This document shows positions 3,964 to 27,347 of a stretch of 38,890 nt of DNA, piece after piece. Position 1 is the first letter of the stretch; every line of letters starts with the position of its first letter. This DNA is from Escherichia phage ECA2. The notes under the pieces were generated by a model. That model saw only the letters and a list, made by a program, of their open reading frames with translations. It did not search any database and was not told where the DNA came from. A program made the translations under genes and the position numbers. The DNA is taken from sequence record NC_047766.1, one strand, 5' to 3'.

Positions 3964-4557
3964 ATGTGCTGGATGGCAGCGATTCCTATTGCCATGATGG
4001 GCGCCCAAGCTCTAAGTAGCCAGAACAGTGCTGACAAGGCGCGAGTGGCACAGACCGAAGCTGGACGCAGACAGGTAATAGAGATGGTCAAAGAGACGAA
4101 TATCCAAAATGCCAACGCCTCGCTGGAACAACGGGACGCCCTTGAGGCTGCATCCTCTGAGTTGACTTCACGTAACATGCAGAAGGTACAGGCTATGGGA
4201 ACCATCCGTGCAGCTATCGGCGAGAGTATGCTAGAAGGTGAATCCATGAAGCGCATAAAGCGTATCGAAGAGGGCAACTACATTCGGGAGGCAAATAGTG
4301 TCACCGAGAATTACCGCCGAGACTACGCGAGTATCTTTGCGCAACAGTTGGGACGCACTCAGTCCACAGCAAGTCAAGTCGATGCAATGTACAAGAGCGA
4401 GGCCAAGGGTAAGTCTGGTCTGATGCGTGTGCTAGACCCTCTGTCTATTATGGGTCAGGAAGCTGCAAGTCAATATGCGGCTGGTGGATTTGACAAGAAA
4501 GGTGGAAACCAAGCAGCACCTATCAGTGCCGCCAAAGGAACCAAGACCGGGAGGTAA
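3964..4557 (+). CDS. 14: Internal virion (core) protein B (gp14)
   Basis: 197 aa; RBS AGGAGG; synteny and size (T7 gp14 is 196 aa). Confidence 0.88.
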   Translation: MCWMAAIPIAMMGAQALSSQNSADKARVAQTEAGRRQVIEMVKETNIQNANASLEQRDALEAASSELTSRNMQKVQAMGTIRAAIGESMLEGESMKRIKRIEEGNYIREANSVTENYRRDYASIFAQQLGRTQSTASQVDAMYKSEAKGKSGLMRVLDPLSIMGQEAASQYAAGGFDKKGGNQAAPISAAKGTKTGR

Positions 4558-4559
4558 TA

Positions 4560-6803
4560 ATGGCTAGTAAACTAAATAGTGTTTTAGGTAACATGGCGAC
4601 TCCCGGTATGGAACGACTCCGGGGCGTCAAAGGTATGGACTACCGGGCAGCAACCATTCAGGCTGAACAACCAAGAGCGAGTCTTCTGGACTCCCTAGGT
4701 CGATTCGCTAAGGCTGGTGCCGATATGTACATGGCGAAAGATGAACGCGATAAGCAACGAGCCGATGAGCGCTCCAACGAGATTATCCGTAAGCTGACCC
4801 CTGAGCAGCGCCGACAGGCTATCCAGAATGGTACACTACTGTATCAGGATGACCCATACGCAATGCAAGCCTTGAAGTTCAAGACCGGGCGTAACGCTGC
4901 GTTCCTCGTTGACGATGAGGTTCAACAGGGAATCAAAGAGGGGCGCTTCCGTACCCGTGAAGAGTTGGAGCAGTATCGACACTCACGCCTACAGGAACAG
5001 TCGAAGTCGTTCACTGAGCAGTTCGGCATCAATGAGATGGACGAGGAGTACCAGAAGGGTTTCAATGCGAACATCACCGAGCGCAACATCGCTCTGTATG
5101 GGGCACATGATGCCTTCCTGAGTGACCAAGCGCAGAAGGGTGCTATCCTTAATTCGAAGGTTGAACTCAACGGTGTCCTGTCTGACCCTGACCTACTGTC
5201 TAGTCCTGAGTCCGGTGAGTTCTTCCAGAACTACATTGACAACTCCTTGGTGACAGGGATGACCGACAATCAGGCTCAACAGGTTATCTCTTCTTCCCTG
5301 AATGACGTGCTACAGCGTCCGGGTGGTGCCGCCTTCTTGCAGAACATTGAGAACCGCAAGGTGACTCTTAATGGCGCTACGACTACCTATCGTGAACTGA
5401 TGGGTGATGAGCAGTGGCAGGCAATGATGATTAAGGCACAGCACACTCAATTCCAGAACAACGCGAAGTTAACCGAGAAGTTCCGACTGGATATCAACTC
5501 AGCACTTAACCAAGCGGACACTGGTAAAGGTTGGGAGACTCTTCAAGGCATCAAGGCCGAACTCGATAAGATTCAGCCGGGTGAAGAGATGACTCCTGAG
5601 CGTGAGTGGCTGATTTCCGCACAGGAACATATGCGCACCCGCTTCAAGCAGGAACAAGCTGAGACAGCCAAGCTGATGGACAAGCAACAGAAGACCCTGA
5701 ATAAATCTTTGGTCATCGACAAGCAGTTCCAGAAGCGCCTCAACGGTGAATACGTCTCGACCAACTATAAGGACATGCCGACCAACGAGAACACTGGTGA
5801 GTTTACACATAGCGATATGGTCAACTACGCGAACCAGAAGTTAGCGGAAATCGAAGCGATGGACTTAACGCCAGAACAGAAAGGCAAACTGAAATTGGAC
5901 TACCTACGGGCAGACTCCAAGGAGGGTGCTTTCCGTGCAGCGTTTGGTGAGATGATTACTGACGCGGGTAACGAATGGCAGGCTGCGGTGATTAACGGTA
6001 AGATGCCTGAGAGCACATCAGCGATGGACAACCTTCGTCGCATCCGCAACACTGACCCTGACCTGATTGCCTCTCTGTATCCTGACAAGGCCGAGTTGTT
6101 CCTGACGATGGACATGTTGGATAACCAAGGCATCGACACGCAGGTTCTTATCGACGCTGATAAGGCCCGCTCACAGAAGACCAAGGAGATGCAGTTTGAG
6201 GATGACCGAGCGTGGGCTGCTATGATGAACGATTCAACGAATCCTCAAATCAAGTACATGCCTTCGAGTGTCCAAGGGTATGCCCGGAAGATTTATGATT
6301 CCGTGAAGTACAGGACAGGGAACCCTGATATGGCAACCGAACAGGTCGCAAAGTTCCTCTCTGATTCAACGACTACGTTCTCCAGTAGTGATGTTGAGGG
6401 TGATACCTATGGTGTCCTGCCGAAGAACATCCTTACTGTTTCGGATGACCCTAAGTCGTGGGAGCAGGGTAAGAACATTCTGGACGAAGCCATTAAGGGA
6501 ATCACAGCGGCGAACCCTTGGATTACCAACAAGCAACTGTCGGTGTACCAGCAAGGTGATTCAATCTACCTGATGGACACAACTGGACAGGTTCGCATTC
6601 GGTATGACCAAGAGTTGCTCAAGCGTGAGTATCAGCGCACCGCACAGATGCAAGCTGAGGCAGCACGAGAGAAAGCCCTCAAAGAGGCCAACAAGCGTGC
6701 CCCAATCAGCCGTGTAACACAGGCGCGTGAAGAAGCGCGTAAACGTGTCCAAGAGAAACGGAAGAAGACTCCGAAGTACATCTATGGACGTAAAGAAGAC
6801 TAA
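4560..6803 (+). CDS. 15: Internal virion (core) protein C (gp15)
   Basis: 747 aa, same length as T7 gp15; synteny. Confidence 0.9.
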   Translation: MASKLNSVLGNMATPGMERLRGVKGMDYRAATIQAEQPRASLLDSLGRFAKAGADMYMAKDERDKQRADERSNEIIRKLTPEQRRQAIQNGTLLYQDDPYAMQALKFKTGRNAAFLVDDEVQQGIKEGRFRTREELEQYRHSRLQEQSKSFTEQFGINEMDEEYQKGFNANITERNIALYGAHDAFLSDQAQKGAILNSKVELNGVLSDPDLLSSPESGEFFQNYIDNSLVTGMTDNQAQQVISSSLNDVLQRPGGAAFLQNIENRKVTLNGATTTYRELMGDEQWQAMMIKAQHTQFQNNAKLTEKFRLDINSALNQADTGKGWETLQGIKAELDKIQPGEEMTPEREWLISAQEHMRTRFKQEQAETAKLMDKQQKTLNKSLVIDKQFQKRLNGEYVSTNYKDMPTNENTGEFTHSDMVNYANQKLAEIEAMDLTPEQKGKLKLDYLRADSKEGAFRAAFGEMITDAGNEWQAAVINGKMPESTSAMDNLRRIRNTDPDLIASLYPDKAELFLTMDMLDNQGIDTQVLIDADKARSQKTKEMQFEDDRAWAAMMNDSTNPQIKYMPSSVQGYARKIYDSVKYRTGNPDMATEQVAKFLSDSTTTFSSSDVEGDTYGVLPKNILTVSDDPKSWEQGKNILDEAIKGITAANPWITNKQLSVYQQGDSIYLMDTTGQVRIRYDQELLKREYQRTAQMQAEAAREKALKEANKRAPISRVTQAREEARKRVQEKRKKTPKYIYGRKED

Positions 6804-9800: not shown

Positions 9801-10784
9801 TCAAACTACATTCTTGATGCTGCCCGTCAGGGTGTGCTTGGGGATGTGGCTGGAGCGGCCCTTGCTGGGAAAGCCTCTAAGTTCGGTAAGGCAAACTACC
9901 TTAAGTCTGCCTCTATCAGCCCTGAGCAGTGGAATGGAATCAAGCAGTTGTTCAGAGACTATGCGACTCGTGGAGAAGACGGTAAGTTCACCATTCGTGA
10001 CAAACAGGCTTTCGCTAACGACCCACGTTCAATGGACTTGTGGAGACTGGCCGACAAGGTGGCGGATGAGACTATACTGCGCCCTCACAAGGTTTCCTCA
10101 CAGGACTCCAAAGCGTTCGGTGCAGGGGTGAAGATGGTGATGCAGTTTAAGAACTTCGTCATCAAGTCCCTTAACTCCCGGTTCGTCCGTAGCTTCTATG
10201 AGGCAACGAAGAACAACCGTGCGTTAGACCAAGCGTTGACTCATATCATCTCCTTGGGTCTAGCTGGTGGTTACTACGTTGCGCAGGCACACCTTAAGGC
10301 CGCAAGCCTACAGGAGCACAAACGTAAGGAGTACCTCAAGAACGCCCTTGACCCTAAGATGATTGCTCATGCATCAATCTCCCGTAGTTCACACTTAGGC
10401 TCACCATTGAGTATCTACGACATGTTCGCTGGGATGGTTGGTAGCGATACCTATAAGTACACCCGCTCTACTGTACTCCCTAAAGAGTCCGAGAAGCGTG
10501 ACCCTACCAAGGCAGTGACAGGTAGACAGGTGGCTTCAACTATCGCAGGTGCAGTTGGTGAGCAGGTTCCGGGTTTAGGTTTTGTGGGTTCTGTGGGCGC
10601 AACAGCCATTAACGCCGCTTCCCTGCTGTCTTCTCCAAACAAGGCTACCGCTCTGGAGTTCCGTACAGGACTCTTCAACACCTCTCGTGAGTTGATTCCT
10701 AATGACCCGCTATCGCAGCAACTCATTATGAAAATCTACGAGGCCAACGGTATCCGCATAAAGGAGACGCCGAAGAAACAATAA
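6822..10784 (+). CDS. 16: Internal virion protein D (gp16) with N-terminal lytic transglycosylase domain
   Basis: 1320 aa; N-terminal SLT-like motif (AFNESSFNP...GPKGLMQFTKGTA); synteny. Confidence 0.93.
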   Translation: MSYDKNKPSEFDGLFQKAADKHGVSYDLLRKLAFNESSFNPKAKSPTGPKGLMQFTKGTATALGLKVTDADDDDRYNPELAVDAAARHLSDLIRKYDGDELKAALAYNQGEGRNGAPQMQAYDKGDWASISEEGRNYMRNLMDVANSPRKGDLEAFGGITPKAKGIPSGDAFAGIGKKQTVGTDLPESTGFKVEGTEQKAPNVPYAKDFWEKTGTTLDEFNARSTFFGIGDAISAELHNSVLGVAFRAARSDDGFDLFKDTITPTRWNSHTWTPEELERIRKEVKNPAYINVVTGGSPENLDALIKMANDNYEMDARSADAGVGAKLTAGIVGAGVDPLSYVPLVGVAGKGLKVVNKAFVVGTQSAGLAIASEGIRTSIAGGEAHYADAALGGLMFGAGMSAISDAIAAGIRRSRGTEVVNDFAPMAHRLEARETALNSGGEDLTRMPSENRVFDREHAGVEYSPLETEPGAVVLPQGQILSDTNPLNPQTLSEFEAVNPERAASGISLGGFTEIGLKTLRSENPTVRSIASDLVRSPTGMESGSNGKFGATASDIKERLHANNQRTYNQLYDAVRTAMKDPEFSTGGATMSRKEIRQEIYKRAALAIERPELQANLTKGERNVMNILKQHFDLKREIMENPSIFGNTKAVSIFPGSRHKGTYVPNVYDRAIKIEMVKRYGNDGLQRAIAESWLTSYRARPEVKARVDEYLMELNGLKSVQEVTPEMVQKHAMDKAYGISHTDQFSASSVIEDNIEGLVGIENNNFLEARNMFDSDMAVTLPDGNTFSVNDLRTYDMAEILPAYDRRVDGDVAIMGGSGKTTKDLKDEIMALDKQSEGNGTLKGEVEALKDTVKILTGRARRNPEGAWGTALRSVNDLTFFAKNAYMGAQNVTEIAGMLAKGNVSAITHGIPMINDWVNRGKPLRASEIKEIHGMVFGKELDQLIRPGREDHVRRLRESTDTSAAVANVVGTIRFGTQELAARSPWTMLLNGTSNYILDAARQGVLGDVAGAALAGKASKFGKANYLKSASISPEQWNGIKQLFRDYATRGEDGKFTIRDKQAFANDPRSMDLWRLADKVADETILRPHKVSSQDSKAFGAGVKMVMQFKNFVIKSLNSRFVRSFYEATKNNRALDQALTHIISLGLAGGYYVAQAHLKAASLQEHKRKEYLKNALDPKMIAHASISRSSHLGSPLSIYDMFAGMVGSDTYKYTRSTVLPKESEKRDPTKAVTGRQVASTIAGAVGEQVPGLGFVGSVGATAINAASLLSSPNKATALEFRTGLFNTSRELIPNDPLSQQLIMKIYEANGIRIKETPKKQ

Positions 10785-10806
10785 ACCCTCACTAAAGGGA
10801 GAGAGG
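10780..10806 (+). promoter_or_regulatory. Phage RNAP promoter phi17
   Basis: AATAAACCCTCACTAAAGGGAGAGAGG. Confidence 0.88.
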
Positions 10807-10855
10807 TCACATTCTGGCCTCTTCTCTCCTAATGCTAATTTACAAAGGAGGTCAC

Positions 10856-12544
10856 ATGGCTACAAATATTAAGACCGTGATGACTTACCCGCTGGATGGC
10901 TCCACTACGGACTTTAATATTCCGTTTGAGTATCTGGCTCGTAAGTTCGTCCGAGTGACCCTTATCGGTGTTGACCGAAAGGAACTCATCTTGAATCAAG
11001 ACTATCGTTTTGCAACTAAGACCACAATCTCAACAACGAGAGCGTTGGGGCCAGCGGACGGTTATAACATGGTTGAAATCCGTCGATTTACCTCCGCTAC
11101 CGATAGGCTGGTTGACTTCACCGATGGTTCAATCCTTCGGGCATACGACCTGAACATCTCTCAGGTTCAAACCCTTCACGTTGCAGAAGAGGCTCGTGAC
11201 TTAACGGCTGATACCATTGGTGTGAACAACGATGGCAACCTTGATGCTCGTGGTCGTCGTATCATAAACGTAGCTGATGGTGTTGACCTCGGTGATGTTA
11301 TCACTTTAGGTCAAGTCACTCGGTGGAATGAGTCTGCCCTGAACTCTAAGAACGCCGCTGCTACCTCTCAGGCCGCTGCCAAGACCTCAGAGACCAACGC
11401 TAAGACCTCAGAGACCAACGCTAAGACCTCAGAGACCAACGCTAAGACCTCAGAGACCAACGCTAAGACCTCAGAGACCAACGCGTACCAATGGGCGCAG
11501 CGTGCAGAGGACTCTCCGGTGCAGGGTAGCGAGTTCTCCTCATATCACTACTCACGCAAATCCGCTAAGAGTGCTGCCGCCGCGAGTGTTTCTGAAGATA
11601 ATGCTAAGGTGTCCGAGAATAACTCGAAGACCTCTGAGACCAACGCTAAGACCTCTGAGACCAACGCTGCGGCCTCTGCTCAGACAGCTAAGGATGAGGC
11701 GGCTAAGCTGACCAACATGAATGACTTTGCTGCCGCTATTGATTCAGTCAACGGTAACAATGTTGTCATGAAGGGTGACTTCACCATTAAAGGAAACGGT
11801 AAAGTATCAATACTGAACCACAGTGGGCTATACCAAGATAAGACCGTGAATGGCGTGAACTATGCCAACAGGATTTATATGGATGATGCAGGGGCCATGC
11901 ACTTCGAGAACTACCGTGTGTCTGGTACTTCATCCACCTTACGTGCTGGTTTTGTTATTACAGATACCAACAGGTTTGACTTTACAGGGCCAACGCAAGT
12001 TAATGGTGATATCATCGCATATGTGAATGCGCCCCCTAATCCAGCTATTGGTCAATACCTCAATTCTGTGGCAGTTCGCTCACAGCTTCGGGGCCGTGGT
12101 GCTGAGAATGATCCACTTGGTGCGTACTGTGGTATGTATATTCAGGAGCACGTTGGTACAGACCACGCGATAATCCTTAACCTCAATGGTTTTAGCAAGG
12201 ATACTAACTGGCAGCTATTCTCCAATGGTAAAATATCTACACCACTTGGTGATGTGATGACTTCAGGTTCTGATGTTAGAATCAAGGATGATATCACTAA
12301 ACCTCTTGATGGTGCTGGTGAGCGTATTGACGCAATTGGCATAGTGGAATACACAGAGATTGCCACCGGGGAACGTAAACGTGGGTGGCTGGCCCAACAG
12401 CTTGACACGATTGACCCGCTGTACACATACCTCACGACCACCGCAGAAGGTAGTCTTTTGAATACCAACGACAGGGCGTTGCTTGCTGACGTAATAACTG
12501 AGCTTCAGGCACTACGTCAACGCGTTAAAGAACTCGAAGGATAA
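10856..12544 (+). CDS. 17: Tail fibre protein (gp17), mosaic: T7-like N-terminus, repeat-rich shaft, distinct distal region, C-terminal S74-type chaperone domain
   Basis: Start ATG 10856 with RBS AAAGGAGGT; N-terminus MATNIKTVMTYPLDGSTTDFNIPFEYLARKF matches recalled T7 gp17; C-terminus has SDVRIKDDI...RKRGWLAQQLD...VKELE. Confidence 0.9.
   Translation: MATNIKTVMTYPLDGSTTDFNIPFEYLARKFVRVTLIGVDRKELILNQDYRFATKTTISTTRALGPADGYNMVEIRRFTSATDRLVDFTDGSILRAYDLNISQVQTLHVAEEARDLTADTIGVNNDGNLDARGRRIINVADGVDLGDVITLGQVTRWNESALNSKNAAATSQAAAKTSETNAKTSETNAKTSETNAKTSETNAKTSETNAYQWAQRAEDSPVQGSEFSSYHYSRKSAKSAAAASVSEDNAKVSENNSKTSETNAKTSETNAAASAQTAKDEAAKLTNMNDFAAAIDSVNGNNVVMKGDFTIKGNGKVSILNHSGLYQDKTVNGVNYANRIYMDDAGAMHFENYRVSGTSSTLRAGFVITDTNRFDFTGPTQVNGDIIAYVNAPPNPAIGQYLNSVAVRSQLRGRGAENDPLGAYCGMYIQEHVGTDHAIILNLNGFSKDTNWQLFSNGKISTPLGDVMTSGSDVRIKDDITKPLDGAGERIDAIGIVEYTEIATGERKRGWLAQQLDTIDPLYTYLTTTAEGSLLNTNDRALLADVITELQALRQRVKELEG
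11378..11482 (+). repeat. Five tandem copies of a 21-bp unit (GCTAAGACCTCAGAGACCAAC) encoding AKTSETN heptads in gene 17
   Basis: Four perfect copies plus one with a single mismatch; diverged copies at about 11600-11665. Confidence 0.95.
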
Positions 12545-12791: not shown

Positions 12792-13058
12792 ATGAGCGAC
12801 AAGACTTTAATCAAGCTGCTAGAGATGCTGGACACGGAGATGGCACAGCGTATGCTTGCTGACCTCCAGAACGAGGAACGCCGAACTCCGCAGCTTTACA
12901 ACGCAATCGGCAAACTGTTAGACCGCCATAAGTTCCAAATCAGTAAGCTGACCCCGGATGAGAACATCCTTGGAGGTCTCGCGGCTGGTCTGGAAGACTA
13001 CAACAAAGTGGTCGGCCCTAATGGTCTGACTGACGATGAGACTATCACGCTACAGTAA
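12792..13058 (+). CDS. 18: Terminase small subunit (gp18)
   Basis: 88 aa; synteny and size (T7 gp18 is 89 aa). Confidence 0.88.
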   Translation: MSDKTLIKLLEMLDTEMAQRMLADLQNEERRTPQLYNAIGKLLDRHKFQISKLTPDENILGGLAAGLEDYNKVVGPNGLTDDETITLQ

Positions 13059-13062
13059 GTGA

Positions 13063-13100
13063 CATACTCAAGGTTCTCCACGTGGGGAGCCTTTATGGAT
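13063..13100 (+). ncRNA. RNase III-type processing hairpin (R18.5-like)
   Basis: ACTCAAGGTTCTCC...GGGGAGCCTTTATGGATG; shares the ACTCAAGG...GCCTTTATGAT motif with other sites in this genome. Confidence 0.55.
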
Positions 13101-13147
13101 GTTATTTGGTGCATCTACGTGAAATCTAAAAATTGATGGGAGGTGTT

Positions 13148-13621
13148 ATGCTAAAACTTTTACGCAGCGCACTCCCTTGGGTACTCGCCGGGACACTCTT
13201 TATGGGTGGCTGGCACTTAGGGTCAACCCATGAGAGAGCAAACTGGAAGGAGGTAATCCAAAATGAATACATTGCGAAAACAAAAGCTGATATCCAACAG
13301 CATAATGCAGTACAGACAGCACTCGATGCCATTGCTAAGCGGCACTCCGATGAGATGGCTGAACTTGAGGGGAGCACTGATGGGATTGTTAATGCTCTCA
13401 ATGCTGATAACAAGCGGCTGCGTGTCAAACTCAAAGCTATCAGTGGAACACCCGGCGATAAACAGCAGTGTATCAGCACAGTTGATGGAAAAGCCGAACT
13501 TGACGAAGGAGATGCTAAGCGTCTTATCGGAATAGCTCAGAAGGGTGATAAGTGGATTGAGAACCTACAGGACACTGTGCGAGTTCTCCAAGGTAAACTC
13601 AAAGAGAAGGAGACTAAGTAA
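13148..13621 (+). CDS. 18.5: Rz-like i-spanin (gp18.5)
   Basis: Start ATG 13148 with RBS GGGAGGTG; N-terminal TM segment; matches recalled T7 gp18.5 (LRSALPWVLAG...DNKRLRV). Confidence 0.88.
   Translation: MLKLLRSALPWVLAGTLFMGGWHLGSTHERANWKEVIQNEYIAKTKADIQQHNAVQTALDAIAKRHSDEMAELEGSTDGIVNALNADNKRLRVKLKAISGTPGDKQQCISTVDGKAELDEGDAKRLIGIAQKGDKWIENLQDTVRVLQGKLKEKETK
13263..13535 (+). CDS. 18.7: Rz1-like o-spanin lipoprotein (gp18.7), embedded in 18.5 in the +1 frame
   Basis: Lipobox-like LITSGC; embedded arrangement as in T7 18.5/18.7. Confidence 0.75.
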   Translation: MNTLRKQKLISNSIMQYRQHSMPLLSGTPMRWLNLRGALMGLLMLSMLITSGCVSNSKLSVEHPAINSSVSAQLMEKPNLTKEMLSVLSE

Positions 13622-14046
13622 TGGCTATGGGAAGACCAAGGGCGTCTCAGTTAGAGCGGGAATGTTCGACCTGCGGTCTGACTAAGCCCGTTTCTGAGTT
13701 TCATAAGAATGGCAACCTGCGGGGTGTCCCTCAGTATAAAACAACTTGTAAGCCATGCCGTAAGGCTGCAACCCAACCAGACACCTACAGGAAATATCAC
13801 CTCAAGGCTCGTTACGGTATTACCGTGGATGAGTATGACGCGTTGGAGAAGGCCCAAGGAGGAGTGTGTAAGATTTGTCAGAGGCCAGAGACTCAGCGTA
13901 AGAGACTCGCCGTTGACCACTGCCATACTACTGGTGCTGTTCGTGGCTTACTGTGTACAACCTGCAATGCGGCAATCGGTCATCTATTGGATGACCCAGA
14001 GATTATCCGTAGGGCTGCTGACTACGTAGGAGGAACCCTTGAGTAA
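13621..14046 (+). CDS. HNH endonuclease, endonuclease VII-type (putative homing endonuclease)
   Basis: 141 aa; motif [40 protein letters not shown] typical of the Endonuclease_7 / HNH family; start overlaps 18.5 stop (TAATG) and 3' end overlaps the gene 19 start. Confidence 0.8.
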
Positions 14047-15802
14047 CTCACAAGAGGCCCGCAATGCCTTAATAGTTGCGCAACTTAAAGGAGATTTTGT
14101 CGCTTTCTTATTTGTCCTATGGAAAGCCCTTTCGCTTCCACAACCCACTAAGTGTCAGATTGATATGGCACGGTGTCTGGCTAACGGAGACAACAAGAAG
14201 TTTATCCTACAGGCTTTCCGTGGTATCGGTAAGTCATTCATCACCTGTGCGTTCGTTGTGTGGACGCTGTGGCGTGACCCTCAGTTGAAGATACTGATTG
14301 TCTCTGCATCCAAAGAACGTGCGGACGCTAACTCCATCTTCATCAAGAACATCATTGACCTGCTGCCCTTCTTGGCTGAGCTAAAGCCTCGCCCCGGTCA
14401 GCGTGACTCTGTGATTAGTTTCGATGTTGGCCCTGCCAAGCCTGACCACTCTCCGTCTGTGAAGTCGGTGGGTATCACTGGTCAGTTGACTGGTAGTCGT
14501 GCTGATATCATCATAGCAGATGACGTTGAGATTCCGTCTAACTCCGCAACTCAAGGTGCCCGTGAGAAGCTGTGGACTCTGGTGCAGGAATTTGCTGCGC
14601 TTCTGAAACCGCTGCCGACTTCTCGCGTTATCTACCTTGGCACGCCTCAAACCGAAATGACCTTGTACAAGGAACTCGAAGATAACCGTGGGTACACCAC
14701 AATCATCTGGCCTGCGCTCTATCCGCGTAGCCGTGAGGAAGACTTGTACTATGGCGACCGTCTGGCCCCGATGCTCCGCGAAGAGTTCAACGATGGGTTC
14801 GAGATGCTCCAAGGTCAACCGACTGACCCCGTGCGCTTCGATATGGAAGACCTACGTGAGCGTGAGTTGGAATACGGTAAGGCTGGCTTCACTTTGCAGT
14901 TCATGCTCAACCCGAACCTTAGTGATGCCGAGAAGTACCCCTTACGCCTCCGTGACGCTATCGTGTGCGGTCTTGACTTCGAGAAAGCCCCAATGCATTA
15001 CCAGTGGCTACCGAACCGTCAGAATCGCAATGAAGAGCTTCCTAATGTGGGACTTAAGGGTGATGATATTCATAGCTATCATTCGTGCAGCCAGAACACT
15101 GGACAGTACCAGCAACGCATCCTCGTGATTGACCCAAGTGGTCGTGGTAAAGATGAGACAGGTTACGCAGTGTTGTTCACCCTGAATGGCTACATCTATC
15201 TGATGGAAGCTGGCGGGTTCCGCGATGGTTATTCCGATAAGACCCTTGAGTCCCTCGCTAAGAAAGCGAAGCAGTGGAAGGTTCAGACCGTGGTCTTCGA
15301 GAGCAACTTCGGGGATGGTATGTTTGGTAAGGTATTCAGTCCTGTGCTCCTGAAACACCATGCAGCCGCTATGGAAGAGATTCGCGCTCGTGGTATGAAG
15401 GAACTACGCATTTGTGATACGCTGGAACCTGTGCTCTCTACGCACCGCCTTGTGATTCGTGATGAGGTGATTCGTGAGGACTACCAGACTGCCCGTGACG
15501 CTGATGGCAAGCATGACGTTCGCTATTCGCTGTTCTACCAGTTGACCCGTATGGCCCGTGAGAAGGGCGCTGTGGCACATGACGACCGACTTGATGCGTT
15601 AGCATTGGGTGTGGAGTTCTTACGCTCTACGATGGAACTGGACGCCGTGAAGGTGGAGGCTGAGGTGCTTGAGGCGTTCTTAGAGGAACACATGGAGCAC
15701 CCAATCCATTCGGCTGGTCATGTAGTTACCTCGATGGTTGACGGTATGGAACTCTATTGGGAGGATGACGATGTGAATAGCAACAGGTTCATTGACTGGT
15801 AG
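14039..15802 (+). CDS. 19: Terminase large subunit (gp19), apparent TTG start
   Basis: 587 aa; conserved N-terminus [30 protein letters not shown] begins at TTG 14039; AGGAGG at 14028-14033; in-frame TAG at 14027-14029 closes the frame upstream. Confidence 0.9.
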
Positions 15803-15882: not shown

Positions 15883-15909
15883 CATTAACCCTCACTAAAG
15901 GGAGAGAGG
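15883..15909 (+). promoter_or_regulatory. Phage RNAP promoter phiOR
   Basis: CATTAACCCTCACTAAAGGGAGAGAGG downstream of gene 19. Confidence 0.88.
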
Positions 15910-17390: not shown

Positions 17391-17450
17391 CTCTTGAGTG
17401 CACGAATAGCGGATAACTCAAGGGTATCGCAAGGTGCCCTTTATGATATC
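17391..17450 (+). ncRNA. RNase III processing site (R0.3-like) upstream of gene 0.3
   Basis: CTCTTGAGTGCACGAATAGCGGATAACTCAAGGGTATCGCAAGGTGCCCTTTATGATATC, near-identical to recalled T7 R0.3. Confidence 0.75.
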
Positions 17451-17481
17451 CACTAACACTACACACAATGAGGTAACACAA

Positions 17482-17847
17482 ATGGCTATGTCTAACATGA
17501 CTTACAGCAACGTTTTCGCCCACGCTTACGAAATGCTGAACGAAAACATTCGTTATGATGATACCCGTGACACTGATGGTCTTAGTGACGCAATTCATGA
17601 GGCAGCAGATAGCGCCGTTCCGCACTATTACAGTGACATTTTCAGTGTAATGGCAAGCGATGGCATTGACCTTGAGTTCGAAGATTCCGGTCTTATGCCG
17701 GACACCAAGGACGTGACCTGTATTCTACAAGCACGCATCTATGAGCAACTCACGATTGACCTTTGGGAAAAAGCTGAGGACTTACTCAACGAATACCTTG
17801 AGGAAATCGAAGAGGAGGAAGAGGAAGTCGAAGAGGACGAAGAGTAA
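17482..17847 (+). CDS. ocr: Ocr (gp0.3) DNA-mimic anti-restriction protein
   Basis: Start ATG 17482 with RBS GAGGT; [27 protein letters not shown]...acidic C-terminus matches recalled T7 Ocr. Confidence 0.92.
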
Positions 17848-23138: not shown

Positions 23139-23416
23139 TGATGATGGGACGTATCTATAGCGGCAACCTGAACGATTACAAAGACGCGGTAGCGCGTCTA
23201 CAGGAAGACCATGACGTGACCGTGAAGGTGGAGTCATTCAGCTATGAAAACCCAGCGAAGATGTGCAGGTCATCCGGTGAGGCTCTACGTGTGTTCACAC
23301 GCTCAGGGCATTTGGTGGCATCCAGAACCTTCGAGCACAGCGACAGCGATGTACAAATCAACGCGCAGACTGCATGGCTCCGTAAGGTTCACAGCGATTT
23401 GAAACACTGGAAGTAA
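23138..23416 (+). CDS. 1.2: gp1.2, inhibitor of host dGTP triphosphohydrolase
   Basis: MMMGRIYSGNLNDYK...DLKHWK matches recalled T7 gp1.2 termini; start among three tandem ATGs (23138/23141/23144) is uncertain. Confidence 0.85.
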   Translation: MMMGRIYSGNLNDYKDAVARLQEDHDVTVKVESFSYENPAKMCRSSGEALRVFTRSGHLVASRTFEHSDSDVQINAQTAWLRKVHSDLKHWK

Positions 23417-23437
23417 TAACCCTCACTAACAGGAGAA
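23414..23437 (+). promoter_or_regulatory. Phage RNAP promoter (phi1.3-like)
   Basis: TAATAACCCTCACTAACAGGAGAA. Confidence 0.8.
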
Positions 23438-23442
23438 ACGAC

Positions 23443-23859
23443 ATGAGAAACATCGAACGGTTCAACGCAAAGACTGAACCTTGCGGTGACTGTCTACGTT
23501 GGACTGGTCGAATCCAGCCTAACGGTTACGGACAGTTTCGCCTCGAAGGTAAAACACAATACGCACATCGAGCAGCTTACAAGCTGTTTATCGGTGAACT
23601 GGACAATAAAGATACAGTCCTTCACTCGTGCGACAACAGGTGGTGTGTGAACCCTGAGCATTTGACCAAGGGAACGCAGGCCGATAACCTGAAAGACATG
23701 GCGATAAAGGGTAGACACCACGCCATTAAGATTCCGAACGATGCCATTGAGGGCATCCGCAAAGACCCTCGCTCTTCCACTGTGATAGCGGCTGAGTGGG
23801 GCGTCCACCCAACAACCATCCATAAGATTAAGCGAAATATTAACAGGAGATTCGTATGA
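23443..23859 (+). CDS. HNH homing endonuclease (HNH_3-type) between promoter phi1.3 and the ligase gene
   Basis: 138 aa; motif AHRAAYKLFIGELDNKDTVLHSCDNRWCVNPEHLTKGTQADNLKDM; stop overlaps ligase start (ATGA). Confidence 0.8.
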   Translation: MRNIERFNAKTEPCGDCLRWTGRIQPNGYGQFRLEGKTQYAHRAAYKLFIGELDNKDTVLHSCDNRWCVNPEHLTKGTQADNLKDMAIKGRHHAIKIPNDAIEGIRKDPRSSTVIAAEWGVHPTTIHKIKRNINRRFV

Positions 23860-24872
23860 ACATTTTCAAGACCGCGCCATATAAAGCTGTATCCTTTGTT
23901 GAGTCTGCCGTGCGTAAAGCGCTGGAGACTTCCGGCTACCTGATAGCGGATTGTAAATATGACGGTGTTCGTGGAAACATTGTGGTTGACAACGTGGCTG
24001 AGGCCGCATGGTTGTCTCGCGTCTCCAAGTTCATCCCGGCGCTGGAACATCTGAACGGTTTCGATAAGCGCTGGCAACAACTGATGAATGATGACCGCTG
24101 CATTTTCCCTGATGGCTTCATGCTGGATGGTGAACTGATGGTCAAAGGCGTAGACTTCAACACGGGGTCTGGCCTGCTGCGTACCAAGTGGCTCAAGAAG
24201 AACAACTTCATGTTTGACCGTGGTGGTGTTGAGCCGCTGAAAGGTTCCAAAGTAGCCTTTGAGTTAGACCCTAAGCGCCTGAGTGTGCGCCTGTATGCGG
24301 TCATGCCGATTCACATTGCTGAGTCTGGCGAGGACTACGATGTGCAGAACCTCCTGATGCCATATCATGTGGAAGCCATGCGCTCTCTTCTGGTTGAATA
24401 CTTCCCGGAAATCGAGTGGCTTATCGCTGAGACCTACGAGGTCTACGATATGGATTCACTGACTGAACTGTACGAAGAGAAGCGTGCCGAAGGTCACGAG
24501 GGTCTCATTGTGAAAGACCCGCAAGGCATCTACAAGCGAGGCAAGAAGTCTGGCTGGTGGAAGCTAAAGCCTGAGTGTGAAGCTGATGGTATCATTCAGG
24601 GTGTCAATTGGGGAACCAAAGGGTTAGCCAACGAGGGTAAAGTGATAGGCTTTAGTGTGCTTCTTGAGACTGGTCGTTTAGTAGACGCCAACAACATCTC
24701 TCGCGCACTGATGGACGAGTTCACAGCCAACGTTAAAGCCCACGGTGAAGACTTCTACAACGGGTGGGCCTGTCAGGTCAACTATATGGAAGAGACCCCG
24801 GACGGCTCCCTGCGTCACCCTAGCTTCGAGAAGTTCCGAGGCACTGAGGACAACCCTCAAGAGAAAATGTAA
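23856..24872 (+). CDS. 1.3: ATP-dependent DNA ligase (gp1.3)
   Basis: 338 aa; adenylation motif KYDGVRG; strong match to recalled T7 ligase. Confidence 0.95.
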   Translation: MNIFKTAPYKAVSFVESAVRKALETSGYLIADCKYDGVRGNIVVDNVAEAAWLSRVSKFIPALEHLNGFDKRWQQLMNDDRCIFPDGFMLDGELMVKGVDFNTGSGLLRTKWLKKNNFMFDRGGVEPLKGSKVAFELDPKRLSVRLYAVMPIHIAESGEDYDVQNLLMPYHVEAMRSLLVEYFPEIEWLIAETYEVYDMDSLTELYEEKRAEGHEGLIVKDPQGIYKRGKKSGWWKLKPECEADGIIQGVNWGTKGLANEGKVIGFSVLLETGRLVDANNISRALMDEFTANVKAHGEDFYNGWACQVNYMEETPDGSLRHPSFEKFRGTEDNPQEKM

Positions 24873-26187: not shown

Positions 26188-26886
26188 ATGGCTGGTTTCA
26201 AGAAGAAAATCTACACCTCTGGTCTTGGCACTGCTGAGCCGTATGCTTACCTGAGTAAGCCGGATTATGGCAACGAAGAGCGTGGCTTCGGCAACCCTCG
26301 TGGTGTCTATAAGGTAGACCTGACTCTTTCCAATAAAGACCCGCGCTGTCAGGCGATGGTCGATGAAATCGTGAAGACTCACGAAGAGGCTTATGCTGCT
26401 GCCGTGGAAGAGCTCGAGGCTAACCCGCCGCAGGTACAGCGTGGTAAGAAACCGCTGAAACCTTACGAGGGCGACATGCCGTTCTTCGATAACGGTGATG
26501 GTACGACTACCTTCAAGTTCAAATGCTATGCGTCTTTCCAAGACAAGAAGACCAAAGAGACCAAACACATCAATCTGGTCGTGGTCGATAGCAAGGGCAA
26601 GAAGATTCAGGACGTTCCGATTATCGGCGGCGGCTCTAAGCTGAAAGTGAAATACTCTCTGGTGCCTTACAAGTGGAACACCGCTGTGGGCGCAAGCGTC
26701 AAGCTGCAACTGGAATCCGTGATGCTGGTCGAACTGGCTACCTTCGGTGGTGGCGGTGAAGATGAGTGGGCCGATGAAGTCGAAGATGGCGGTTACACTG
26801 CGAGCGAATCCCGTCAGTCCCGCGATGAACAGGAGTGGCAGGAAGACGAGCACGAAGAAACCCCGGATGACGACGAGGACTTCTAA
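26188..26886 (+). CDS. 2.5: Single-stranded DNA-binding protein (gp2.5)
   Basis: 232 aa; acidic C-terminal tail ending DDDEDF; strong match to recalled T7 gp2.5. Confidence 0.96.
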   Translation: MAGFKKKIYTSGLGTAEPYAYLSKPDYGNEERGFGNPRGVYKVDLTLSNKDPRCQAMVDEIVKTHEEAYAAAVEELEANPPQVQRGKKPLKPYEGDMPFFDNGDGTTTFKFKCYASFQDKKTKETKHINLVVVDSKGKKIQDVPIIGGGSKLKVKYSLVPYKWNTAVGASVKLQLESVMLVELATFGGGGEDEWADEVEDGGYTASESRQSRDEQEWQEDEHEETPDDDEDF

Positions 26887-27347
26887 TGGCTGGCGCATAC
26901 GCTGCGCGAGGTGTACGCAAGGTCGGGGCTTTCCGCTCCGGCCTAGAAGATAAAGTCTCAAAGCAGCTTGAGAGTAAGGGTATTAAGTTCGACTATGAAC
27001 TTTGGCGTATCCCTTACGTCATCCCTGCGAGTGACCACTTATACACTCCAGACTTCCTGCTGCCTAATGGTATCTTCATTGAGACCAAAGGGCTGTGGGA
27101 TTCCGATGACCGCAAGAAACACCTTTTGATTCGTGAGCAACATCCTGAACTGGACATTCGCTTGGTCTTCTCAAGCAGCCGCTCAAAGCTCTATAAGGGC
27201 AGCCCAACAAGCTACGGTGAGTGGTGTGAGAAGCATGGCATTCTGTTTGCTGATAAGCTGATTCCTGTGGCGTGGCTCAAAGAACCCAAGAAGGAGGTTC
27301 CGTTCGATAAATTTAAGACTAAGAAAGGAGTAAAGAAAAATGGCTAA
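26886..27347 (+). CDS. 3: Endonuclease I (gp3), Holliday junction resolvase
   Basis: 153 aa; synteny and size. Confidence 0.9.
   Translation: MAGAYAARGVRKVGAFRSGLEDKVSKQLESKGIKFDYELWRIPYVIPASDHLYTPDFLLPNGIFIETKGLWDSDDRKKHLLIREQHPELDIRLVFSSSRSKLYKGSPTSYGEWCEKHGILFADKLIPVAWLKEPKKEVPFDKFKTKKGVKKNG

Follow-up and report, generated by a model that had tools for sequence, protein, structure and literature searches.

Homing endonuclease genes (HEGs) cluster beside phage terminase genes, where they mark recombination boundaries (PMC10448857). The DHHRN family has catalytic residues equivalent to D40, H41, H43, R54 and N62 of T4 endonuclease VII, and a C-terminal position of this motif marks its 'endonuclease clade' (Fang et al. 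2018, Mob DNA, PMC6083498). The nuclease of Escherichia phage ECA2 analyzed here resembles F-CphI and its DHHRN relatives in its D-H-H-R-N residues, its CX2C...CX2C zinc ligands and its C-terminal motif; like F-CphI it is free-standing, and like the family it is found in phages, which include podoviruses that already carry T7 endonuclease I (PMC6083498). It differs from F-CphI in lying at the 5' end of a terminase gene with no intron, and it is known from sequence alone, whereas the activity of F-CphI has been shown experimentally.

Several other described systems resemble the ECA2 gene in position or context. The same slot of a T7-group phage, between genes 18.5 and 19, holds an HNH_3-type HEG in Hafnia phage Ca and Citrobacter phage CR44b; in Hafnia phage Ca the start of this gene likewise overlaps the 18.5 stop, its last 8 nt overlap the start of the large terminase gene (TerL), and variants with and without it have been observed (PMC8861465). 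The Ca/CR44b gene belongs to an unrelated family (PF13392, HNH_3), however, and is followed by a TerL gene with an ATG start. The T3 HNH gene downstream of DNA polymerase, a case of 'collaborative homing' (Bonocora and Shub 2009), and the T4 seg and mob genes are, like the ECA2 gene, small nuclease genes occurring sporadically between essential genes; as summarized in PMC6083498 and PMC10448857, they spread by double-strand-break repair in which flanking markers are co-converted. They belong to other nuclease families with other targets, and in those summaries their cleavage and marker exclusion are experimentally established. HK97 gp74, too, is encoded by an HNH-superfamily gene beside the terminase genes, but proteins of this type are described as a different HNH family, conserved and required in cos-type phages, where they stimulate cutting by terminase; the ECA2 gene is dispensable across relatives and resides in a phage with a T7-type TerL.

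Two further enzymes are relevant for their structure. T4 endonuclease VII itself (gp49), a Holliday-junction resolvase, shares with the ECA2 nuclease a zinc-stabilized beta-beta-alpha-Me core, the catalytic residues and Pfam family PF02945; ECA2 uses endonuclease I instead. The sequence-specific type II restriction enzyme Hpy99I (PDB 3fc3) and the ECA2 nuclease each have two Cys4 zinc sites and a beta-beta-alpha-Me active site, although the nuclease has no adjoining methyltransferase and is found in a phage rather than a cellular context.

A nuclease gene at the spanin-terminase junction

The window, by which we mean the whole 38,890-nucleotide stretch of ECA2 DNA that was analyzed (NC_047766.1), contains the following features in and around the junction:

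10782..10802, + strand: T3-type late promoter (phi17-like), the nearest phage promoter upstream of the nuclease gene, from a consensus search
13148..13621, + strand: gene 18.5, i-spanin, the upstream neighbor (Pfam Phage_lysis; PHROG 1327, Rz-like spanin)
13263..13535, + strand: gene 18.7, o-spanin, within 18.5 in another frame (ORF with lipobox LITSGC)
13621..14046, + strand: probable free-standing HEG of the endonuclease VII-motif (DHHRN) family, 141 aa (ORF, Pfam and PHROG)
14039..15802, + strand: gene 19, TerL, the downstream neighbor (Pfam Terminase-T7_RNaseH-like, E=6e-40; PHROG 38)

A sequence-only reading of this DNA had described a 141-aa ORF at 13621-14046 between spanin gene 18.5 and terminase gene 19, overlapping both, and our analysis bears this out. 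The coordinates, strand and ATG start are exact; the 18.5 stop (TAA, 13619-13621) and the nuclease start (ATG, 13621-13623) share 1 nt in the sequence TAATG; the nuclease ORF, which stops at TAA 14044-14046, has 8 nt in common with the TerL ORF; and the Phage_lysis/Rz-like spanin and Terminase-T7_RNaseH-like matches support the names given to both neighbors. Its statement that gene 19 otherwise follows 18.5 directly also holds among relatives, with a 26-nt overlap in KLB4 and SH2 and a TAATG overlap in Ninurta and WW2. Gene 18.5 has an alternative TTG start at 13133, its i-spanin call agrees with the annotation of Kp31, and the 18.7 ORF is the counterpart of the annotated KLB4 o-spanin.

The consensus search found 11 T3-type late promoters in the window against 0 expected by chance. 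As the next such site downstream of 10802 is at 15885..15905, with none between 10802 and 15885, the nuclease gene lies within the late 17-to-19 transcription unit. Near the gene, no sigma-70-like promoter or terminator scored above shuffled-sequence level, and no paralogue of its family was found elsewhere in the window. Gene 19 is contiguous, with no intron at the nuclease locus, and the whole window has 0 Rfam matches, so the nuclease gene is not intron-borne.

A two-zinc nuclease that resembles Hpy99I more than T4 endonuclease VII

The encoded protein is 100% identical to the RefSeq entry 'endonuclease VII [Escherichia phage ECA2]'. Conservation and an AlphaFold2 (AF2) model (pLDDT 90.5) together describe a protein of two predicted zinc modules:

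13663..13758, + strand: N-terminal four-Cys zinc ribbon (C15, C18, C43, C46), a putative DNA-binding module (alignment, AF2)
13798..14028, + strand: C-terminal beta-beta-alpha-Me nuclease core (Pfam, alignment, AF2)

The Endonuclease_7 core and N-terminal Cys-rich segment proposed earlier both withstood closer inspection. The protein matched Pfam Endonuclease_7 at E=1.2e-28 (99 bits against a cutoff of 23.6; residues 60-136) and PHROG 2633 'endonuclease VII' at E=7e-44, far beyond chance, and Endonuclease_7 was its sole Pfam match at E<=0.01, with no PF01844-type HNH domain. In an alignment of 83 homologues, the four ribbon cysteines and the catalytic residues D99, H100, H102, R108 and N116 are invariant or nearly so; among the structural zinc ligands of the core, C83, C86 and C115 are invariant and C112 is kept in at least 90% of sequences. 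The AF2 model places four beta strands in the ribbon (residues 12-43, pLDDT ~90-95) and, in the core, strands at 97-100 and 107-111 and a helix at 113-121.

By sequence and by model, the nuclease is more like Hpy99I than like the resolvase of T4. Among PDB structures, Hpy99I ranks first in the sequence comparison (E=1e-6, query residues 13-136) as well as in the fold comparison (Foldseek probability 1.0, 141 aligned columns), and it covers nearly the full length of the nuclease, albeit at 22% identity and a low global TM-score of 0.37. The match spans Hpy99I residues ~76 to 195, with the N-terminal zinc ribbon aligning from residue ~76 on; the N-terminal domain of Hpy99I is missing from the nuclease. 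The match to T4 endonuclease VII, by contrast, is limited to a core of ~50-78 residues (nuclease residues 73-122 against gp49 residues 13-68 by sequence; 78 columns by fold). The gp49 motif is at the N-terminus, and the dimerization domain that follows it has no counterpart in the nuclease. ECA2 also encodes a resolvase of its own, an endonuclease I (Phage_endo_I) at 26886..27347 (E=8e-84).

Sporadic occurrence within a donor-type patch

The sequence-only reading had proposed comparing the junction among relatives, where a ubiquitous, syntenic ORF with no insertion signature would have told against homing. The ORF proved sporadic, with an evident insertion signature: only 7 records (6 phages) carry it out of ~100 close, T3-like records in which both flanks match at >=90% identity. 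We use these ~100 close relatives as the denominator for absence, as most of the 762 records retrieved match TerL only. KLB4, the closest genome overall (94.4%), cleanly lacks the gene.

The gene lies in a 791-bp recombinant patch (13287..14077). The surrounding backbone is of Teetrevirus type and shares 98-100% identity with phages without the nuclease gene. The patch contains spanin 3' sequence of Ningirsuvirus type, the nuclease gene and the first ~12 codons of gene 19, so that donor-type tracts flank the nuclease gene on both sides:

13287..13620, + strand: left donor-type tract, Ningirsuvirus type, by identity to W2B and Ninurta
14047..14077, + strand: right donor-type tract, gene 19 codons 4 to ~13, Ningirsuvirus type, by marker comparison

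The left tract takes in two-thirds of i-spanin 18.5 and part of o-spanin 18.7, in each case at the 3' end. Its identity to the Dickeya phages W2B and Ninurta is 90-100%, against only ~55-60% to KLB4 and SH2; 5' of 13286 the window is 98-100% KLB4-like. In the right tract, 35 of 37 positions agree with W2B and Ninurta. The right breakpoint falls between the last donor-specific marker (14077) and the first KLB4-specific marker (14083), and from ~14085 on the window is again 98-100% KLB4-like. Ninurta itself presents an intact empty site, in which gene 19 starts at the TAATG of 18.5. These comparisons indicate that the nuclease gene came along with a short DNA stretch from another phage genus and, since the breakpoints are the same in all Teetrevirus carriers, that these carriers represent one event rather than many. 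Ordinary homologous recombination among mosaic phages could also produce such a patch, with no break made by a nuclease.

The inferred donor, a HEG-bearing Ningirsuvirus, was not found in phage, IMG/VR or metagenome collections. A tblastn search of the phage collection returned 8 records at >=90% identity, 0 of them Ningirsuvirus; IMG/VR held no match above 59% identity; and in metagenome contigs, an exact 32-mer scan gave 0 matches and a protein-pattern scan none above 59%. An exact-sequence look-up for contigs encoding the 141-aa protein returned 0.

A second acquisition and purifying selection

Comparison with the T7-type Yersinia phage vB_Yep_9 reveals a second, independent gain of the same gene. 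Yep_9 is 94-100% identical across its flanks to WW2, a relative without the HEG, and its donor-type tracts (<50 bp on the left; ~80 bp on the right, agreeing with the right tract of the window) differ from those of the Teetrevirus carriers. Its HEG is 85-94% identical to that of the window, against 74% genome-wide. The dN/dS of 0.13 between these two copies indicates that the nuclease gene is under purifying selection. Between the window and Kp31 copies we counted 5 non-synonymous differences and 1 synonymous; the resulting dN/dS above 1 rests on these 6 differences, and the 5:1 excess is compatible with relaxed constraint but comprises too few changes to interpret. Every copy has an intact ORF, and copies at 66-100% identity have all retained the catalytic and zinc residues.

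More distant copies show fidelity to the same site. In L015, L099 and L016, lineage members at 66-74% identity, the gene adjoins the 5' end of TerL, in three further backgrounds, and IMG/VR relatives at 37-44% identity occupy this position in 5 of the 11 loci with T7-like context. The slot also receives other cargo: in JA10 and Sibilus it holds a 205-aa ORF that has no Pfam match and matches only a PHROG of unknown function.

Capture of the terminase translation signals

Insertion of the nuclease gene changed the translation signals of gene 19, as judged from two elements read from the sequence:

13607..13612, + strand: Shine-Dalgarno (SD) AAGGAG, 8 nt 5' of the nuclease ATG
14028..14041, + strand: replacement TerL start inside the 3' end of the nuclease gene (AGGAGG, 5-nt spacer, TTG at 14039)

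In empty-site genomes the same AAGGAG element and ATG serve gene 19; aligned, the empty sites of Ninurta and W2B read ...AAGGAGGCTAAGTAATG, followed by gene 19. TerL of ECA2 starts with TTG, not ATG. This TTG is the first possible start in the TerL frame, the next in-frame ATG being at codon 43, and it alone retains the conserved TerL N-terminus. Kp31, 2050H2, L098 and Yep_9 have the same TerL TTG, while relatives at 66-74% identity start TerL with ATG. Comparison with the empty sites thus indicates that the insertion did more than fill an intergenic gap: the nuclease gene evidently took over the original SD and ATG of gene 19 and supplied gene 19 with a new SD plus TTG. The lack of a TerL annotation in the RefSeq record of at least one carrier may be due to this TTG start.

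Homing as the probable explanation of the locus

Taken together, we consider the ORF to be a free-standing homing endonuclease gene of the endonuclease VII-motif (DHHRN) family, with a probability of about 0.8. This reading is based on the profile match, the conservation of the DHHRN and Cys residues, the Hpy99I-like structure, the sporadic presence, the donor-type tracts, the second event, the site fidelity, the purifying selection and the published HEGs beside terminase genes. The protein has the catalytic D, H, H, R and N of DHHRN homing endonucleases, with CX2-4C and CX2C zinc ligands around the catalytic motif; the motif is C-terminal (60-136 of 141 residues) in a phage with a separate resolvase; and the gene appears sporadically at a fixed site between donor-type tracts. 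The 5' end of gene 19 is the probable target region.

Under this model, during mixed infection with a relative lacking the gene, the enzyme would cut the relative's genome at or near the 18.5/19 junction. Phage recombination would then repair the break with the HEG-bearing genome as template, copying the HEG together with flanking donor sequence (co-conversion). HEG-bearing genomes would be immune, either through disruption of the site by the insertion or through flank polymorphisms. Clean deletion of the HEG would leave the essential terminase gene without translation signals, which would help the HEG persist.

Alternative explanations

We considered whether the gene is a former HEG that has lost homing, either an inert passenger kept for the TerL start signals or a nuclease put to another use, for example against competing phages or against host DNA, with no gene conversion; this we judge improbable. 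The TerL SD and TTG lie inside the ORF, so that selection would act against deletion irrespective of enzyme function; the Teetrevirus carriers all go back to one event; the closest copies differ mostly non-synonymously; and the fold resembles that of a restriction enzyme. Yet the TerL signals alone would require just the last ~20 nt, whereas the whole ORF is intact, with its catalytic and zinc residues preserved, and the longer comparison gives a dN/dS of 0.13. A second genus gained the gene independently with its own tract. As for restriction, the nuclease has the double-zinc beta-beta-alpha-Me fold of Hpy99I-like type II endonucleases but no adjacent cognate methyltransferase, its neighbors being the spanin genes and TerL.

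A role as a packaging cofactor, in which an HNH protein and terminase cut concatemers as HK97 gp74 does in cos-type phages, is very unlikely. It would fit a gene immediately 5' of TerL that overlaps it and is co-transcribed with it late; HNH genes beside terminase genes are packaging factors in HK97-like phages, as summarized in PMC10448857 and PMC8861465, and Hafnia phage Ca virions without the slot HEG are reported to dominate small plaques (PMC8861465). The Hafnia phenotype is, however, more simply explained as loss of TerL translation signals inside the HEG, and the same slot elsewhere holds unrelated cargo (the HNH_3 HEG and the 205-aa ORF). The ECA2 protein lacks the classical PF01844-type HNH domain of gp74-type cofactors and matches Endonuclease_7 only, and terminase synteny holds in 7 of ~100 records rather than in all relatives. 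Nearly all close relatives, KLB4 included, and T3- and T7-type phages package normally without the gene, and TerL has an RNaseH-like nuclease domain of its own. The sequence-only reading had argued that T7-group packaging needs no such cofactor and had favored a homing endonuclease; these observations agree with the former, and the sporadic presence, donor-type flanks and second gain in Yep_9 point to the latter.

Finally, a true endonuclease VII resolving Holliday junctions or branched DNA in replication and packaging, as the Pfam family name, the RefSeq annotation and the gp49-like catalytic core would suggest, is scarcely credible, since only the short core aligns, rather than the full length of gp49 with its N-terminal motif and C-terminal dimerization domain, the C-terminal motif marks the endonuclease clade and not the resolvase clade (PMC6083498), ECA2 already encodes a T7-type endonuclease I, and a resolvase would be conserved across relatives as their sole such enzyme, not missing from most of them.

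Implications

Part of this picture is already known: the exact protein is in RefSeq, and both the family and HEGs at the 18.5/19 junction have been published. The ECA2 case leaves the current understanding of homing endonucleases unchanged, and it provides a tidy natural example of HEG-associated co-conversion across genus boundaries in T7-group phages, in which the nuclease gene apparently traveled in a 791-bp patch together with the terminase N-terminus and part of the spanin genes. The case also exemplifies a HEG that seems to have captured and replaced the translation signals of an essential gene. As the evidence points to homing and the name 'endonuclease VII' suggests a resolvase, the annotation should read homing endonuclease.

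It is conceivable, if doubtful, that the HEG is no longer purely selfish, that TerL synthesis is translationally coupled to it, that its spread drives lysis-module exchange, and that the shared synonymous ATC-to-ATA change at gene 19 codon 12 is an immunity mutation. Coupling is possible because the HEG holds the only SD of TerL and a weak TTG, with an 8-nt overlap. If so, the HEG could not be cleanly lost and terminase dosage would be under its control. Lysis-module exchange would follow from its spread having brought the C-terminal two-thirds of both spanin subunits, of Ningirsuvirus type, into Teetrevirus. ECA2 is used in therapy studies, and in phage engineering and therapy a HEG of this kind can bias recombination in phage cocktails.

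A nuclease gene overlapping the terminase start

The sequence-only reading placed a 141-aa ORF with an Endonuclease_7 core between 18.5 and the large terminase gene and proposed that it is a homing endonuclease gene (HEG). ORF calling recovered it at exactly 13621-14046, on the + strand with an ATG start, and an HMM search bore out the core (Pfam Endonuclease_7, E=1.2e-28, residues 60-136). The overlaps described at both ends can likewise be read in the sequence: the ATG (13621-13623) shares 1 base with the 18.5 stop (TAA, 13619-13621), the junction reading AAGGAGACTAAGTAATGGCT, and the 3' end, GTAGGAGGAACCCTTGAGTAA with its stop at 14044-14046, overlaps by 8 nt the TerL (large terminase) ORF, which runs from 14039. 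A profile search matched the ORF to PHROG 2633 'endonuclease VII' (E=7e-44). RefSeq already contains this exact protein, named by homology: YP_009786119.1, 'endonuclease VII [Escherichia phage ECA2]', at 100% identity. Profiles identify 18.5 by Phage_lysis and an Rz-like spanin PHROG, 18 as the small terminase, and gene 19 by Terminase-T7_RNaseH-like.

Features around the nuclease gene
13621..14046, + strand: nuclease ORF (HEG), 141 aa, ATG start, Endonuclease_7
14039..14041, + strand: TTG start of gene 19 (TerL), 8 nt inside the nuclease ORF
10782 (phi17-like) and 15885: nearest promoters around the nuclease ORF, T3-type

The genome is circularly permuted and T3-like (Teetrevirus), with 11 T3-type promoters; since the nearest lie at 10782 and 15885, the nuclease ORF is part of the late 17-to-19 transcript and lacks its own promoter. 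Elsewhere, a second HEG-like gene (23443..23859, +; Pfam HNH_3 E=4.5e-9, PHROG 59), unrelated to the Endo VII-type nuclease, sits between a T3-type promoter (23416..23436) and DNA ligase (23856..24872), which it overlaps by 4 nt; an HNH gene is annotated at the equivalent pre-ligase position of Yersinia phage vB_Yep_9 (Yep_9), a T7-type phage. The early region is mosaic, with a T7-type DNA mimic ocr (17434..17847, +; Pfam E=1e-58) in place of the T3-type SAM hydrolase of its close relatives KLB4, Klebsiella phage 31 (Kp31) and 2050H2. Tail fibre gene 17 (10832..12544, +) has a shaft with five tandem copies of the 7-aa repeat TSETNAK, and blastn against five related genomes found nothing matching its last ~500 bp (especially 12000..12540), so its receptor-binding end has been swapped.

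A DHHRN nuclease with two zinc sites

In an alignment of 83 homologues, C15, C18, C43, C46, C83, C86, D99, H100, H102, R108, C112, C115 and N116 are invariant or nearly so. The Cys-rich N-terminal segment noticed at first sight is a Cys4 zinc ribbon (C15, C18, C43, C46) kept across the alignment, and the remaining residues make up a second Cys4 site and a D-H-H-R-N catalytic set, the defining feature of the 'DHHRN' family of Endo VII-motif homing endonucleases (Fang et al. 2018, PMC6083498). A confident AF2 model (mean pLDDT 90.5) shows a four-stranded ribbon (12-43), helices, and a beta-beta-alpha element (strands 97-100 and 107-111; helix 113-121).

The best solved relative by sequence is the restriction enzyme Hpy99I (query 13-136 against chain residues 76-195, E=1e-6), and the likeness extends over most of the nuclease in sequence and in fold (Foldseek, 141 columns, probability 1.0), whereas the junction resolvase T4 endonuclease VII aligns only in part (residues 73-122 by sequence; 78 Foldseek columns). 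The longer match to Hpy99I makes the nuclease look more like an enzyme that cuts duplex DNA at specific sequences than like the T4 junction resolvase.

Sporadic distribution among relatives

A megablast search with window positions 13000-14400 matched 762 phage records, most through TerL alone, and we compared the ~100 records with at least 90% identity on both sides of the junction. Only 7 of these, from six phages, carry the ORF: Kp31, Serratia phage 2050H2 (two records), Serratia phage Seera, and Klebsiella phages mtp1, mtp4 and mtp14. The others match in two pieces over ~937 bp rather than 1401 bp, as an empty site, in keeping with the expectation that the ORF is not ubiquitous. Across the whole phage collection, tblastn at 90% or higher protein identity returned the same carrier records plus Yep_9, and there was no further full-length match above 50% identity. 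At 35-50% identity, the family is represented in many Autographiviridae elsewhere in the genome, for example in the gp13.5 slot, upstream of gp12 or close to the DNA polymerase gene. Kp31 has a second, early-region Endo VII-type paralogue (record L008, 1092..1547; 40% identical; Pfam Endonuclease_7 E=9e-24) without a counterpart in the window.

A donor patch in a KLB4-like backbone

The closest genome among the fetched relatives is KLB4, which lacks the HEG (94.4% over aligned sequence, against 92.3-92.6% for carrier phages). A 50-bp-bin identity comparison combined with site-by-site markers divided the locus as follows.

Closest relatives by segment
12585-13285: KLB4 and SH2 (also HEG-lacking), 98-100%
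13285-13625: Ningirsuvirus phages W2B and Ninurta, 90-100%; KLB4 ~55-60%
13625-14046: without a match in KLB4/SH2 and W2B/Ninurta
14047 to ~14080: Ningirsuvirus type, 35 of 37 positions
14085 onward: KLB4, 98-100%

Site markers put the left crossover at ~13286 and the right between 14077 and 14083. The insertion signature is thus a 791-bp donor-flanked patch (13287..14077) comprising ~334 bp of donor spanin, the 426-bp HEG and ~31 bp of donor gene 19. Such a pattern is expected from co-conversion during the repair of a double-strand break; ordinary recombination could in principle produce the same one.

Capture of the TerL start signals

Ninurta preserves an intact empty site, AAGGAGGCTAAGTAATG TCT AAG CAA TCC CAA GAG GCC CGC, in which TAATG ends 18.5 and starts gene 19, the direct 18.5-to-19 order expected without the ORF. 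Relative to this site, the HEG holds the Shine-Dalgarno sequence (SD) and ATG, gene 19 codons 2-4 are replaced, and a new gene 19 start, AGGAGG-N5-TTG AGT AAC, lies at the HEG 3' end, with 5 nt between AGGAGG and the TTG. The TTG at 14039 is the earliest possible start in the TerL frame, and must be the one used because the conserved TerL N-terminus precedes the next in-frame ATG, at codon 43. In every carrier of this HEG allele (the window, Kp31, 2050H2, carrier record L098 and Yep_9) the TerL start codon is TTG; in relatives it is ATG. RefSeq NC_047844.1 (2050H2) has no TerL CDS annotated after its 'endonuclease VII' gene (downstream of 36843), possibly owing to the TTG start. Because the TerL start signals sit within the HEG, simple deletions of it are likely to be deleterious.

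The same 18.5/19 slot is known to hold a different HEG, also in CR44b (PMC8861465). Hafnia phage vB_HpaA_yong1 (Ca) carries there a 143-aa HNH_3-family HEG with a GTG start (L010, 4221..4652), whose 8-nt overlap onto TerL is identical to that of the window nuclease; its GenBank 'homing endonuclease' is only a 138-nt fragment (4515..4652). Loss of this unrelated HEG is reported to give a plaque phenotype (PMC8861465), for which, by analogy, TerL start signals inside the HEG may account.

Some Ningirsuviruses have in the slot, empty in Ninurta, a 205-aa ORF beginning at the same TAATG (Dickeya phage JA10, L013 1832..2449; Klebsiella phage Sibilus, L011 1475..2092), with phrog_5004 as its sole match and none in Pfam. 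In a T7-like Logan contig (SRR2063946_5121, 111..2580), three genes are inserted: unknown ORFs of 383 and 282 aa, neither with a Pfam match, then, abutting TerL on its 5' side, an Endo VII-type nuclease with 66% identity. The spanin-to-TerL junction has the look of a general accessory-gene hot spot.

A second acquisition at the same site

Yep_9 is 74% identical to the window genome-wide and 85-94% across the HEG. HEG-lacking relatives (WW2 and others) match the Yep_9 locus at 92-94% in two pieces, with ~410 bp missing. In 50-bp bins, Yep_9 is WW2-like (94-100%) up to the HEG and again from ~80-100 bp into gene 19, and window-like between; after the TTG, its gene 19 N-terminus is the window's Ningirsuvirus-type tract, where WW2 has M S K G T S A Q A N R N A L V. 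The Yep_9 HEG is a second acquisition, with tract lengths differing from those of the window.

Three more diverged members of this lineage, all Endonuclease_7 proteins, also sit immediately upstream of TerL and overlap it at an ATGA. P0002 (74% identity) has a spanin on one side and, on the other, a TerL ~78% identical to that of the window; P0003 (74%) precedes a TerL 96% identical to Teetrevirus TerL, which makes it another allele within that genus; P0004 (66%) follows spanin and two unknown ORFs. Of 11 IMG/VR loci whose neighbours are recognisably T7-like, 5 have a relative at 37-44% identity immediately before TerL. The nuclease dN/dS between window and Yep_9 is 0.13 (at longer distances dS is saturated, with dN 0.2-0.3); together with the recurring TerL-adjacent loci, this indicates a gene kept by selection and returning repeatedly to one site. 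Such return points to a probable target within the conserved gene 19 5' region or the gene 19 ribosome-binding site. Gene 19 codon 12 (14072..14074, Ile) is ATA in every carrier of the window's allele and ATC in KLB4, SH2, Ninurta, W2B and JA10, the last three being otherwise identical Ningirsuvirus-type empty alleles; as a candidate immunity substitution of the target site, this synonymous change is purely speculative.

A homing model and its alternatives

As read from the sequence, the HEG is co-transcribed late with genes 17 to 19, using the ancestral gene 19 SD and ATG and carrying within it a replacement SD and TTG for TerL; its product is a two-zinc beta-beta-alpha-Me protein. Family knowledge and the natural recombinants suggest that, in co-infection, the nuclease would cut HEG-lacking genomes near the junction, that repair would be templated by the HEG-bearing genome with co-conversion, and that the latter would be immune through site disruption or flank polymorphism.

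The nuclease may instead be inactive or repurposed, but all catalytic residues are kept, and both this and the second acquisition, in Yep_9, favour activity. A packaging cofactor like HK97 gp74, over which homing had been preferred from the outset, is disfavoured: nearly all relatives lack the gene, the nuclease belongs to a different HNH family, and TerL has its own nuclease domain, although the two roles need not exclude each other (Barth et al. 2023, PMC10448857). A true resolvase is disfavoured by domain architecture, sporadic distribution and the T7-group endonuclease I already present (26886..27347, E=8e-84); in the tree of Fang et al., C-terminal-motif proteins of endonuclease I-bearing podoviruses belong to the endonuclease (homing/restriction) clade (PMC6083498).

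Much of the setting for a homing endonuclease here is established: the DHHRN family is published, with F-CphI characterised, free-standing HEGs of T7-like phages are known, and HEGs have been documented both beside terminase genes and at the boundaries of recombination (PMC10448857). What may be modestly new is the recognition of a lineage specific for the gene 19 5' end, the precise mapping of a co-conversion patch that crosses genera, and the way in which the HEG has captured the TerL translation signals and put others, with a TTG start, in their place.
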